Below, one piece after another: positions 54,855 through 63,890 of a stretch of 64,000 nucleotides of DNA. The stretch's first letter is position 1. Each line of letters starts with the position of its first letter. The notes beneath the pieces are model-generated. The model was given only the letters and a program-made list of their open reading frames with translations. It searched no databases and had not been told where the DNA came from. This DNA is from Campylobacterota bacterium (GTDB lineage Bacteria; Babelota; Babeliae; Babelales; RVW-14), in the NCBI GenBank assembly GCA_020633995.1, contig JACKCO010000003.1, positions 73,503 to 137,502 on the forward strand. The letters are read 5' to 3'. The translations under genes were made by a program, and so were the position numbers.

Positions 54855-57800
54855 ATGAAACGTGCACAACACTATCGCCTTTTCTATCTCCTGCTTATCA
54901 TGCTTTGCATGCCAACTAAAACGTGTGCTCAAACGGCACTATTTGCACAGCCAGCACCTACACCAACACTTACCACGCTTACATCACTGGCTACAACAAC
55001 CGAGGACCCTCTTGCACAACTTGCCTATGGACTGCGTTATGGTGATGTCATACAACTTTCACAATTTGAACAGTTTCTAGCATCACACGAATATTATTTT
55101 AACTATCAAAATGGTTCTGGGCTGCAACAAACTTTTTTATCTAAAAACAATAATGATAAAAACTGGTGGACCAATTTATGGGAAATTCATCCACCTGGCG
55201 GTGTTGGCCTTGACTCCCTACACCCTGTAACCCAAACTCCATATCGCGAAAATTTTGTAAAATCTGGACAAGCAGTTGCACTACGCCACTGGCGAACACA
55301 AAAAAATTTACAAAGCACACAACACGTACTCGTTCAAAATGACAAGACATTATTTTTTGAAACAAACTGTAGTTATCCACAAAACATTGTTGGCAACGCT
55401 GACCGCCTGCTTGTATTTGCCTACAAAAAAAGTGGCAACAATCTCATACCCACATTGCCTGACACAATTTTAACCAATCAGCACACACTCAATTTTCAAT
55501 TCTTTTCAGACCAAGATGAACTACAAACCCAGGCACAAGCGCAACAAAAAAAATATCTAGCCGCAACAAATACAACCATTGATGCTGCACGCCTTGACAA
55601 TCCACAAGCAACTGTAGGCCTGTCTGTGCAAGGTATTGGCGCCGGCACAACACCAAACTACTGGAGCACTGATTTGGTCAGGCTACCTGGTCTTTTTTCG
55701 TCTCTTGTTTTTTCTGAAAATTTTATACAGGAACCAGGCAGTGCGCATAAAGTTGCTGTCAGTCTTTTTAATGGCGTCGCTGAAGTATGGATGCTGGAAA
55801 AAGGAGATGGCATAACCAGCAAAAAACTCTACAAGCTTGATTTGAATGCACAAAACAAATTCCCTTGGGTTGAATTTGTTACAAAAAATAGTCTTGGCCA
55901 ACAGCTTACCTCACTCAAAGATGTAGCCGCCGCATCTGACGGAACGCTATGCATTGTTGATAACAATGGAAAGCTGTATCAATACGACTGGGACAAGCAA
56001 GTGTTTAGCGAACTACCACTTGCGGGTGGAGTGCAAGCACCACCCTTTGACGAAGTTGCCCTTGGCAGCGCACAAAGCATTTGGGCGCGCTCGGCACAAA
56101 CAAATACTGTGTACATGTACAGCAACAACACATGGACACCAAGTCAGAAAAATGCGCTCAATGTTGCTGCAAGCTTTGATGGTTCTGTTTTTGTCATTGA
56201 CACAAATCACAATGTACAACAACTTGCACAAGGTCAGTGGACGCCTATGCCAGGTATTAAACTTGATTTCATTGCAGCAGCAAGCCAAGAGTTTGTTTTT
56301 GGTACATATAAAAATCGAACAACCGGTGTTATTGACCTCTATCAACTCTATCAAGGTCATTGGGAAAGCGTACAAACTAGTTATGGCAGCCCCGCTTCAG
56401 GATTTGAAAAACTTGCCGTCAATACCGAGGGCAACATTTTTGCCACTGACATTTTTGGCAACATTTATAGCAACATTGGCGGTCATGCAGCACCACTACT
56501 GCCGGGAGCTGACATGGCAGGTCCTACTGCAACACTAGGCGGCGTCGACCAAGCAGGCATTGCACTGGCTGGCCAACCAGCGCTCACACAACCGGGAGTT
56601 GGACCCGCTGTCGGACAAATTCCTGGCGCCCCTATGGGCGATCCATTTATGGGTGACCCATTTGGTCCAGACCCATTTGCAGGACAAGTACCGGGAGCTA
56701 TTGCCCCAGCACCTTCAGCACCCGCTCCAGCAGGTGCGTTTAATGATTCATTTGGCCTTGACCCTGGCTTTGAGGGCGCTTCGCTTGATATCATGCCAGG
56801 CTTTGACGTCGCACCAGCTATAACACCTGCTGCCCCTGCTCAAACGTACCAGTCAGAGACATTTTATGATCCCGCACCATATCAACCGCCTGCACCAGCC
56901 TATCAACCCGAACCATTTTACCAGCCCGAGCCATTTTATGAGCCTGCACCATACCAACCACCTGCTCCCGCCTACGATCCGGCACCAATTTACGAGCCCA
57001 CACCAAGTTATGGACCTGACCCTTTTTACCAGCCACCTCAAACGTATGAACCTGCTCCATTTTTTGAAGAACCTTACTATCCACCAGAACCTGCACCATA
57101 CCAACCACCTCCGTACGACCCATTTGCATACGAAGAAGCACTACCGTACGAAGAACCTTTCTATGAACCTGAACCAACACCTGCACCACCACTGCAACCA
57201 ACTCCTGCGCCACTTGAACCAACTCCTGGTCCAATTTTTGGGCTTGATCCTGATGCTTTTCTCGCGCCGCTTGACCCTGTTCCTGGCGAAGGCCAGGGAG
57301 CATTGCCCTCAGAGCCTCCAGCACAAGGGCCAGCGCGTAATCCTAACATTCATTTTTTCAAGTTTAACAATGGCACACCATCAGTCTTTGATGACAAAGA
57401 AGTTGGGGTAGGAAGCCCAGGTGTTTCATTTTTCGATGATAGCTTGGTACTACCAGAAACAGGGAAAGGGACCATCATCTTTCAAGCACGTGCACAAGAA
57501 GGAATACAAATTACCCTTGCAGCAGGAAAACAAGAAAGTGCAAACACCGCATATCAAATTATTATCGGTGCGGAAGGAAACACCGCAAGTGTTATCAAAA
57601 AAGATCCTGCTGGTACACCTGTCTTTACGGTGTACAAACAAGCTCCAGCCAATAACCCTCAAGCACTCGCCAACATTGATGCCATCGTAACCGGAGGGCT
57701 TGGCAATGAAGATAGCCCTATTGGTCAATGGGACGATTATGAAATATCCATCAATAACGGACGGATTGTTTTTGCCAAGGGGTACGGCCAAACTCGCTTT

Positions 57801-63800: not shown

Positions 63801-63890
63801 GATATCGCTGTTGGCGCACTAACAGATGAGCAAATCAACAGCATACAGGCTGAAGCTGAAAAACTCACAAAACAAAACCAATCAACATGA
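54855..63890 (+). CDS. Giant exported chimeric protein (3011 aa): MIR-like, tectonin-like blades, G/P and P/Y/E low-complexity, FAMeT-N-like x2, four ankyrin blocks, five C-terminal beta-sandwich-like repeats; no Arg tail
   Basis: The signal peptide is RLFYLLLIMLCMPTKTCA. The MIR-like part contains LRYGDVIQLSQFEQF and GQAVALRHWRTQKNLQS. Blades include DGTLCIVDNNGKLYQYD, SIWARSAQTNTVYMY and DGSVFVIDTNHNVQQL. The low-complexity tract spans 56480-57230. Beta-sandwiches carry IIFQARAQEGIQITLA..AYQIIIGAEGNTASVIKK and ISFKARGDFGIHIALSP..MYQVIIGWGLNMRSVISK. The ankyrin blocks span 58620-61500 (GSTVLMTAV.., GQTALHKII.., TPLHIAF..). Five modules (61540-63860) each contain (I/V)TFxAQGPxxxGLxG(M/I). Confidence 0.9.
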   Translation: MKRAQHYRLFYLLLIMLCMPTKTCAQTALFAQPAPTPTLTTLTSLATTTEDPLAQLAYGLRYGDVIQLSQFEQFLASHEYYFNYQNGSGLQQTFLSKNNNDKNWWTNLWEIHPPGGVGLDSLHPVTQTPYRENFVKSGQAVALRHWRTQKNLQSTQHVLVQNDKTLFFETNCSYPQNIVGNADRLLVFAYKKSGNNLIPTLPDTILTNQHTLNFQFFSDQDELQTQAQAQQKKYLAATNTTIDAARLDNPQATVGLSVQGIGAGTTPNYWSTDLVRLPGLFSSLVFSENFIQEPGSAHKVAVSLFNGVAEVWMLEKGDGITSKKLYKLDLNAQNKFPWVEFVTKNSLGQQLTSLKDVAAASDGTLCIVDNNGKLYQYDWDKQVFSELPLAGGVQAPPFDEVALGSAQSIWARSAQTNTVYMYSNNTWTPSQKNALNVAASFDGSVFVIDTNHNVQQLAQGQWTPMPGIKLDFIAAASQEFVFGTYKNRTTGVIDLYQLYQGHWESVQTSYGSPASGFEKLAVNTEGNIFATDIFGNIYSNIGGHAAPLLPGADMAGPTATLGGVDQAGIALAGQPALTQPGVGPAVGQIPGAPMGDPFMGDPFGPDPFAGQVPGAIAPAPSAPAPAGAFNDSFGLDPGFEGASLDIMPGFDVAPAITPAAPAQTYQSETFYDPAPYQPPAPAYQPEPFYQPEPFYEPAPYQPPAPAYDPAPIYEPTPSYGPDPFYQPPQTYEPAPFFEEPYYPPEPAPYQPPPYDPFAYEEALPYEEPFYEPEPTPAPPLQPTPAPLEPTPGPIFGLDPDAFLAPLDPVPGEGQGALPSEPPAQGPARNPNIHFFKFNNGTPSVFDDKEVGVGSPGVSFFDDSLVLPETGKGTIIFQARAQEGIQITLAAGKQESANTAYQIIIGAEGNTASVIKKDPAGTPVFTVYKQAPANNPQALANIDAIVTGGLGNEDSPIGQWDDYEISINNGRIVFAKGYGQTRFEVFEFIDPNPIQNITHVGLGGLGNTVEYENLEIIATQLTAPDLTPPEVPIAPPAQLPPLPPGEVVTPELSFSPGDASSPHGGNAGKGVYNQEAWSLKTANYGTISFKARGDFGIHIALSPQPQDVAGNMYQVIIGWGLNMRSVISKSVGGNIEPFVYRVSKEENPNALVTGGSGTGQTATWDDYRVIIEDDTIIVEKGDAQDPIRIMEFTDPTPLSNITYVGFSAWGNIEYADIQITSPEVAPTPAPTPVEPTTPGPETPAPPPTPAPPASPVAQLFAAIKVKDEKRVAELIAEKVDVNAVDATSGSTVLMTAVTQGLSQTTLELILNAGANINAQNTKDGQTALHKIIRFGFLKYQTSKPDIVKLLLSQKPNLDILDNKQQSALHIAFTNGLVQDVELLLNNKADLDVKGETGSSVRELYLALKAQDPATLKLAEQQLIKKIDDYLAAMAKEQAEAEAKKKKQDEEDAKRKEEERIKKLNDSLLAAIQAQDQTAVEAALKAGADIDTIKFNESNVAVGTPVILASQLGNETLVRYLLAQGANVNAITGLPLLIQAIYDGLSPQTLELIINNGGEVNRTGPNNMTALHQFLTVLPEKYTAERNLVLGFLLNLNPDLQAFDALGQTPLHIALKRRLADEFVQLLGHGANLEAKATTTGSQSVRELYAALKTQDPPPTDEPTLNFIKVVDAYFAQQTEEPKKIDGQTTEETTREEKRTGQTTEPETEPAPPVDKAALNKQLFDALNIINVNDPPEIVAKQQAQALELIKKALDAGADVDAADQYGTVAVSATRAGSHDILVELVRRGANVNAQHPSSKTPILIYALVKGFPFDTIKLLLDKGANVNAQTEKMVDGQPVKDATPLHSLINSFGIEFFGFKDEATHNTLLNLLLAPAYNANPNIFNANNKTPLHIAFEKRYAQGVISLISAGANIDAGKQEQKQTVHDLYNDLIAKQTKDPTSIDQATQDFLAAISPQFTQEQKKEDEEKKQKEAETSPPTEPEPTPVPTQTPGQQLLKAIAERNVRDVQAALQANADPETLSDVGTALITALIAPITPPGDENQTALVNQIVIALINAGADVNAVHLASGTTVLMNAIAKGLPPTTIQLILNNGADVDTQDGTNQQTALHILVRYASNLYTQEATRNQVLAALLAQNPNPNIFNRQNETPLHRAFIQRDTQIFTQLMRLPGANVNAGAGEQKQTVRDLYNDIVAKLTKDPTSIDQATRDFITAVTRFFPTSSRGAMATTFVPVTQTLTAQGDGNVTFDAQGPAVGGLNGMIIELLAGSSTIGRITFTRESTVISIGKQTAAPSSAIPLPANDTKVSFWLSVKNSTIEFGAGKNLGQNKGKNWQSPTFAAITGIRLTSGNSTIEYTNLATPASPEPQPQPPQTYDPISIALAGTGAGNITFAAQGPAATGLVGMRIIFVTEANQQTAAINLGQNAISINPALTQAQPFATPQNDTQVTFELAIVGSAMTLRSNNQVLLSATAPLFSTVKNIVLDSSTRTITYTDGVSRPLTDEQQATLKQQQQPQPVKIAPSNHRLATNGASNITFQAQGPANQGLEGMRIGLTDASNQPLIRMTFEAPVISVIMGTETRPQSEAPIPLPTDNTSVSYWASVVGELFTLGSGTTIGQNALKQWNDSSFKNAAVISLTSANENILFSNVTVSALTDDQNKLLAAQQTETIKEQEEKKKKAATPQQTFQPQTATLATTGAGSVTFNAQGPTDSGLVGMKITLRAGSQDVATFDFQATQIVTQYGQNSSNTPYATPSDATEASYKISVVGKLIILTADTRQIISIPDEPAFATIDTVILDSTAQTINFTQVDAEPLDTRLQKLFDAQQQTTSTVTTRDRTPPQTDEQQKKKQDEEQKQKKAAQAIAPVTQAITIPSSVTFTAQGPADQGLDGIHLNFMIGSVSRFTATFTSESTQITRGRVQQTTEGLITLSHDATPITYWLAFTPDKVFFGTGTVGQNILKVWADAGFMLLNTLELSSTEQNITYSDIAVGALTDEQINSIQAEAEKLTKQNQST

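Follow-up and report, generated by a model that had tools for sequence, protein, structure and literature searches.

A predicted Sec-exported protein of 3011 residues from a most likely Dependentiae bacterium, combining lectin-type modules with four ankyrin blocks

A gene of 3011 codons was analysed at positions 54855–63890 of the forward strand in a 64,000-nucleotide (nt) stretch of contig JACKCO010000003.1 (assembly GCA_020633995.1, positions 73,503 to 137,502), which is referred to as the window; amino acid (aa) numbering starts from the ATG of this gene. The product was found to be a mosaic, specific to its lineage, of module types already known and less strange than first proposed, in which a predicted signal peptide, a degenerate MIR-like trefoil, a tectonin-like propeller segment, a Pro-rich spacer and two PF12248 sandwiches are followed by four ankyrin blocks and five C-terminal modules (Table 1). 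It was built up by internal duplication, which gave four ankyrin units and a total of seven sandwich modules. We infer, with a probability of about 0.5, that it is exported by the Sec route and acts non-enzymatically, as a multivalent tether or effector that binds the host.

Results

The C-terminal modules

The two sandwiches F1 and F2 were recognised directly by the Pfam model PF12248 (84.3 bits, 2 stretches, cutoff 24.2). An initial annotation, made from the sequence letters, had described the C-terminus as five novel repeats; alignment confirmed the count (C1–C5, with start-to-start spacings of 143, 145, 167 and 174 aa and pairwise identities of 25–36%). When these modules were scanned singly against Pfam, neither PF12248 nor a galectin family was matched at E ≤ 10. 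A new domain, as suggested by these empty scans, was rejected upon profile–profile comparison and structure prediction. In hhalign, the profile of the five C modules and one made from ten PF12248 (FA-type) modules of the window matched with a probability of 96.7% (E 4.6e-10) over 115 columns, which is essentially the whole domain; the control comparison of the C-module profile with the MIR alignment gave 0.2%.

The C-module profile was then searched against 1.84 billion representative proteins, of which 42 matched at E ≤ 1e-3 (best 80 bits, none at 1e-30), most of them with signal-peptide-like N-termini. Five of the six top matches that were scanned are multi-copy PF12248 proteins, the coordinates overlapping in P0008, and without exception the 25 library domains that matched best scored higher with the FA-type profile (25–105 bits) than with the C-type profile (19–32 bits). 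Module C1 was modelled with AlphaFold2 (AF2) from a 50-sequence alignment as an all-beta domain, with a predicted local distance difference test score (pLDDT) of 90.8 and a predicted template modelling score (pTM) of 0.85. In Foldseek this model was aligned full-length with galectin carbohydrate-recognition domains at template modelling scores (TM) of 0.64–0.72 (E ~1e-5, identity 8–16%), and in a viral structure library it matched galectin and ConA-like entries. When PDB sequences were searched with the profile of the sandwiches, no match was significant. The beta-sandwich fold is common to the C1 model and the carbohydrate-recognition domains of galectin-7, -8, -10 and -11, a resemblance of fold only; membership of the galectin family was rejected, given the 8–16% identity and the empty Pfam galectin scan.

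From the hhalign result, the PF12248 neighbours in the library and the galectin-like fold, the novelty claimed for the repeats is not supported: C1–C5 are strongly diverged PF12248-type sandwiches of galectin-type fold and remote homologs of F1 and F2. The C-type signature, TFxAQGPxxxGLxGM, forms an invariant strand-plus-loop into which, compared with the FA-type modules, 5 residues are inserted. Its residues Q22, G23, P24, G28, L29 and G31 are identical in 5/5 C modules, at an overall identity of ~30%, and the sole nucleotide repeat common to the five modules encodes it (61578–61630, 62007–62059, 62442–62494, 62943–62995 and 63465–63517). The full motif was present in no other protein searched, P0001 having the first part only (FRAQGP), and TFxAQGPxxxGLxG is a candidate functional loop.

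The ankyrin blocks

Domain annotation with profile hidden Markov models placed the ankyrin blocks well within the ankyrin families, above cutoff for both Ank_2 (PF12796; 156.4 bits, 8 stretches, cutoff 27.3) and Ank (PF00023; 109.5 bits, cutoff 21.1). The division into four blocks with a similar starting helix, as given in the initial annotation, agreed with these matches and with the positions of the opening helices at aa 1258, 1466, 1721 and 1995 (nt 58626, 59250, 60015 and 60837). The blocks are paralogous, being pairwise 30–44% identical, and have a common C-terminal cap, SVRELY..DP. The ends of blocks 3 and 4 (60609–60700 vs 61389–61480) do form a repeat, as noted before; "almost identical" slightly overstated its likeness, which amounts to 89% nt identity over 92 nt and 25/30 residues at the protein level, with a longest exact run of 20 nt. 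Likewise, the description of the inter-block linkers as E/K-rich holds clearly for the first, while the second is T/E/P-rich and the third is E/K-rich and then P/T-rich. A database search with block 4 returned only generic small ankyrin proteins, at ≤66 bits. The joining of lectin-type and ankyrin modules in one polypeptide was borne out by the Pfam profile matches.

The N-terminal region

The N-terminus, MKRAQHYR-LFYLLLIMLCM-PTKTCA/Q, has the typical n-, h- and c-regions and reads as a predicted Sec signal peptide. After it, no 19-residue window exceeds a Kyte–Doolittle value of 1.6, so no membrane anchor was found. Searches of the protein against Pfam and NCBIfam gave no enzyme match and no beta-barrel, sorting-signal or cell-wall-binding family.

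The order of signal peptide, MIR-like segment, tectonin-like segment and two FAMeT-N-like sandwiches stood as first described, with the MIR-like segment below the Pfam cutoff (PF02815; 14.3 bits, E 0.038, cutoff 25.6). Its homology is supported by a chain of paralogs: BLASTP against the MIR regions of two paralogs gave 5.6e-7, and jackhmmer within the window tied aa 55–240 to 13 MIR-type paralog segments. The AF2 model of the region was mediocre (pLDDT 63), and its Foldseek matches (TM 0.40–0.45, E ~1e-3) were, among those listed, nearly all of MIR type (SDF2-like, Pmt2/3/4 MIR and IP3R/RyR N-terminal domains). Residues ~55–240 are accordingly described here as a putative, degenerate MIR-like trefoil. 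The propeller segment was matched by Pfam Tectonin (PF19193) at aa 400–532, scoring 41.8 bits when the whole protein was scanned and 45.7 bits for the N-terminal fragment (cutoff 30). In a PDB sequence search, Tectonin 2 of Laccaria bicolor (5fsb) was matched over ~175 residues of the propeller (aa ~353–537), a weak match at E 1.2e-3.

In the Pro-rich spacer, the tripeptide DPF occurs 5 times against 0.26 expected, a count reached in 0/20,000 composition shuffles; three of the five lie in GDPFMGDPFGPDPF, and no other protein of the window has more than one. In disordered regions of eukaryotic proteins, DPF binds the appendages of AP-2. The enrichment is possibly just the repeat, because the tripeptide is embedded in a repetitive acidic-Pro-aromatic unit.

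Table 1 Order of parts in the 3011-residue protein (window positions)
Feature	Position	Strand	Basis
Start codon and predicted Sec signal peptide, aa 1–25	54855..54929	+	Basic n-region, hydrophobic core and TCA/Q cleavage-like site read by eye
Degenerate MIR-like beta-trefoil (putative), aa ~55–240	55017..55574	+	Paralog chaining, AF2/Foldseek; Pfam sub-cutoff
Tectonin-like beta-propeller segment, aa ~353–537	55911..56465	+	Pfam Tectonin, PDB 5fsb match
Pro-rich spacer, 286 aa, aa 545–830, 27% Pro	56487..57344	+	Degenerate acidic-Pro-aromatic units, 5 DPF
PF12248 (Methyltransf_FA / FAMeT-N-like) beta-sandwich F1, aa 866–1015	57450..57899	+	Pfam
PF12248 beta-sandwich F2, aa 1078–1218	58086..58508	+	Pfam
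Ankyrin block 1, aa 1255–1425, then E/K-rich helix-type linker	58617..59129	+	Pfam, alignment
Ankyrin block 2, aa 1463–1680	59241..59894	+	Pfam, alignment
Ankyrin block 3, aa 1712–1950, KQTVHDLYND...DPTSIDQAT cap	59988..60704	+	Pfam, alignment
Ankyrin block 4, aa 1990–2227, cap as block 3	60822..61535	+	Pfam, alignment
C-type module C1, aa 2228–2365, divergent PF12248-like sandwich, galectin-type fold	61536..61949	+	hhalign, AF2, Foldseek
C-type module C2, aa 2371–2505	61965..62369	+	Alignment, hhalign
C-type module C3, aa 2516–2660	62400..62834	+	Alignment, hhalign
C-type module C4, aa 2683–2820	62901..63314	+	Alignment, hhalign
C-type module C5, aa 2858–2995, plus ALTDEQ helix, TGA; no Arg-rich tail	63426..63890	+	Alignment

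Integrity of the gene and flanking regions

The protein is encoded by one intact gene, and the single 3011-aa open reading frame (ORF) reported at the outset was confirmed: the frame has no internal stop, an AAGGA ribosome-binding site lies 9 nt 5′ of the ATG, and codon usage is uniform. The GC content at third codon positions is alike across the lectin, FA, ankyrin and C-terminal parts (0.33–0.35), and all four parts correlate in codon usage with the rest of the window at 0.79–0.85. Repeats within the gene are at most 89% identical at the DNA level, with a longest exact run of 20 nt. The junctions between parts are P/T-rich or direct linkers, resembling linkers elsewhere in the protein, and the TGA stop follows directly after an ALTDEQ-type helix, such as is also found after C2, C3 and C4.

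Scans of the 1.37 kb upstream detected no gene remnant resembling any protein of the window, and promoter and terminator scans of this region gave results near shuffle expectation. Neither tRNA nor Rfam scans had a match in the window. Downstream (63901–64000), a further ORF begins 11 nt past the stop with a signal-peptide-like start, MKKCFILFRKLTNSNPILQPFLLTALLASLCFI, and continues beyond the window end.

Arg-rich tails and neighbouring proteins

The last 60 aa of the protein contain 0 Arg at a net charge of −5, while 12 signal-peptide neighbours have 10–25 Arg; the lack of the Arg tail of its lectin-type neighbours, as first noted, was thus corroborated by counting. These 12 Arg-tailed ORFs lie at 12–20948 and 30925–45250 of the window. 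Most have MIR, Tectonin or PF12248 domains and two are without an assigned domain; their tails are polar (R/T/S/Q/G/A), with no hydrophobic segment. Three of the tails were scanned and matched no Pfam family. Anchoring, nucleic-acid or lipid binding, host targeting and a secretion signal are candidate roles.

One modular neighbour is a 3805-aa signal-peptide protein (8286–19703) with 16 Tectonin stretches (748 bits), 22 Hyd_WA, 3 PF12248 and one MIR, listed by NCBI as hypothetical protein H6679_00310. Besides the protein in question, two signal-peptide proteins of the window gave ankyrin matches, at 24602–26191 (strong) and at 46756–48462 (sub-threshold, Ank_2 22.8 bits, cutoff 27.3). The latter ORF (− strand) and that at 50069–53485 (− strand), which has only a trace of Ank_2, have a near-identical signal peptide and first ~40 residues (MSKMFFKSLLLVLSVGL...SDNWKVSTKAEKA) and look like a separate small paralog family.

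Source organism

The FtsH protein of the window (22268–24208) is 100% identical to MCB9492703.1, from a metagenome-assembled genome (MAG) labelled Epsilonproteobacteria / Campylobacterota. Because some of the next-best FtsH matches, which are 66–74% identical, bear the names Candidatus Babeliales, Dependentiae and TM6, the source organism is, by this single marker, most likely a Babeliales-like member of the Dependentiae, and the MAG label would be wrong. In the nearest relative found, whose FtsH is 74% identical, synteny is confined to the TolQ-TolA-TolB-FtsH-glyoxalase core (window 20985–30436), and no counterpart of the lectin-type arrays on either side, the ankyrin genes or the 3011-residue protein was found there. 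As only the core is syntenic, the lectin-type arrays appear to be lineage-specific additions around it.

Dependentiae in culture are, according to the literature, obligate parasites that live inside protist cells. For Chromulinavorax destructans, signal peptides were reported on 44% of the coding sequences (CDS) and on 78% of the 98 ankyrin proteins, outer-membrane vesicles (OMVs) were shed in food vacuoles before replication in the host cytoplasm, and dense periplasmic material was described (PMC6561590). The signal-peptide ankyrin proteins of cultured relatives were interpreted there as secreted effectors (PMC6561590), and components of a type II secretion system (T2SS), with two gspD copies, were present in 7/7 TM6 genomes compared (PMC4776705).

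Orthologs and related proteins

Neither the 1.84 billion representative proteins nor the genome and metagenome contigs that were scanned yielded an ortholog. A whole-protein search of 5.8 billion clusters also gave nothing, with a candidate list that was probably filled by low-complexity words; for this reason, sub-domains were searched separately. So far, uniqueness seems limited to the C-type subtype and to the way in which the domains are combined.

The protein would work most like two known types, the signal-peptide ankyrin proteins of Dependentiae and the multi-copy PF12248 secreted proteins of metagenomes, and no protein was found that combines both. The former (Chromulinavorax destructans, Babela massiliensis) belong, by FtsH, to the same phylum, likewise pair a signal peptide (predicted in the protein described here) with ankyrin repeats and are presumed Sec-dependent host-interaction proteins (PMC6561590; PMC4776705). 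The nearest ankyrin relatives differ, however, in being stand-alone proteins of 255–398 aa with ≤66 bits to block 4; none of those listed carries PF12248, Tectonin or MIR in its precomputed Pfam annotation, and in none are four ankyrin blocks, with the SVRELY..DP cap, arranged in tandem. The multi-copy PF12248 proteins (P0001, P0003, P0004; PCJ12627.1 from a gammaproteobacterial MAG) resemble the protein in the predicted signal peptide, the large size and the tandem sandwiches, of which the best matches have 7–9 copies, but lack ankyrin blocks. The Arg-tailed paralogs (H6679_00295, _00310, _00315, _00370, _00380, _00385 and _00395) have in common with it the predicted signal peptide, the three lectin-type module families (MIR putatively) and the P-rich and charged linkers, and differ in having the Arg tail and neither ankyrin blocks nor C-type modules.

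The Dot/Icm effectors of Legionella and Coxiella (AnkX, AnkY, AnkH) are alike in that they are ankyrin-repeat proteins of protist-dwelling intracellular bacteria. Membership of this group was rejected, since the NCBIfam models AnkX, AnkY, AnkH, AnkI and AnkG gave partial matches via the repeats at 35–78 bits, compared with cutoffs of 500–1400. Dot/Icm effectors are delivered by type IV secretion, for which they carry a C-terminal signal, and lack a Sec signal peptide such as is predicted for the protein described here.

Discussion

The preferred reading, as a host-binding tether or effector, would proceed as follows. The protein would be exported by the Sec route and would leave the cell through the T2SS conserved in the phylum or in outer-membrane vesicles, and would then encounter its protist host, either in the food vacuole or in the cytoplasm. 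The lectin-fold modules at both ends (trefoil, propeller and seven sandwiches) may bind host glycoconjugates, and the four central ankyrin solenoids may bind host proteins. With lectin-fold ends and an ankyrin centre, the long and flexible molecule would act as a tether or scaffold that links host structures to one another, or the host to the bacterium. As it has no Arg tail, the protein is probably without the anchoring or targeting that the tails would supply to its paralogs.

The initial annotation had seen a paradox in the joining of lectin modules, usual outside cells, with ankyrin repeats, usual inside eukaryotic cells, and had proposed a protein that binds the host surface and then acts inside. 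This argument is weak, given that the organism is most likely a member of the Dependentiae and that, in Chromulinavorax, the cells live in the host cytoplasm and 78% of the ankyrin proteins have signal peptides. For a cytoplasm-dwelling parasite, outside the bacterium is inside the host, so the topological paradox is mostly gone. Proteins with MIR (IP3R/RyR), tectonin (TECPR1) or galectin-fold domains are also at work in the eukaryotic cytosol.

Several points weigh against a host-binding tether or effector. Its function is read from the domain types, and the lectin activity of every module is a prediction. In the alignment, several motifs conserved among the paralogs are lost from the MIR-like domain, and the canonical galectin sugar-binding residues are not evident in the C modules. 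The window contains no secretion genes, and the outer-membrane route is an assumption. Since no ortholog was found, conservation cannot back the function. Finally, the exact protein is not in a 15-billion-protein collection in which seven neighbours from the same contig are present (at NCBI, hypothetical proteins H6679_00295 to _00395 on a 728,521-bp contig); a different start, a pseudogene flag or a withheld entry may account for its absence.

A retained surface fibre or adhesin, serving host attachment or uptake in an extracellular stage with the ankyrin blocks as extracellular binding or spacer modules, is unlikely, though the most probable of the alternatives. The predicted signal peptide, the great length, the beads-on-a-string layout with its 286-aa Pro-rich stalk and the lectin-type heads would all suit it, and many large bacterial adhesins have this general design. 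Against it, neither a hydrophobic segment nor a beta-barrel, sorting-signal or cell-wall-binding family was found; the Arg-rich tail, the sole candidate attachment device in the paralogs, is missing as well. An anchored adhesin of a known type was rejected for want of an anchor.

A structural or storage protein of the periplasm without a direct host target, such as a part of the electron-dense periplasmic material of Dependentiae, has a low probability. A signal peptide assures only Sec export to the periplasm, and dense material of this kind was seen in Chromulinavorax; on the other hand, lectin-type and ankyrin modules are typical of host interaction, the signal-peptide ankyrin proteins of relatives have been interpreted as secreted effectors, and 12 paralogous secreted lectin-type proteins would be left unexplained.

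Galectins and TECPR1 are sensors of membrane damage, and the protein could conceivably mimic such cytosolic sensors or adaptors of the host: its galectin-fold and tectonin-like modules would bind the glycans or lipids of ruptured vacuoles, and DPF motifs and ankyrin blocks would recruit or block trafficking and autophagy factors such as AP-2. The C1 model, the tectonin match, the DPF enrichment and the passage of cultured relatives from food vacuoles to the host cytoplasm are consistent with such mimicry, which is nevertheless improbable, as DPF comprises only three residues inside a repetitive unit and the galectin binding-site signature is absent. Slightly less probable still is an extended version, in which a mimic of host surveillance and trafficking would shield the parasite after its escape to the cytoplasm, the galectin-fold and tectonin modules occupying vacuole glycans or lipids and the DPF spacer and ankyrin blocks capturing AP-2 or autophagy factors, while the paralogs' Arg tail would serve separately as a targeting or anchoring signal not described before. 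An artefactual fusion, by faulty assembly or gene calling, of two or three genes (lectin, ankyrin, C-terminal array) would explain an architecture found nowhere else, with no ortholog, and a protein missing from a collection that holds its neighbours, but is highly improbable in view of the continuous 9-kb frame, the uniform codon usage of the four parts, the ordinary linkers at the junctions, exact repeats of ≤20 nt, the 728-kb contig and the acceptance of the 3805-aa modular neighbour as a single CDS.

Conclusions

Host-associated bacteria commonly have giant modular secreted proteins confined to one lineage, and the 3011-residue protein alone opens no long-standing question. Dependentiae are widespread obligate protist parasites whose host-manipulation proteins are almost entirely uncharacterised. 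As judged from profile comparison and modelling, the C-terminal modules show that a eukaryote-type PF12248 sandwich can diverge past its Pfam model and yet keep a galectin-like fold. The protein is further an example of lectin-type modules and ankyrin blocks fused within a single polypeptide of predicted export, and, together with its 12 Arg-tailed paralogs, it constitutes a defined set of constructs for probing the roles of the tail and of the modules.

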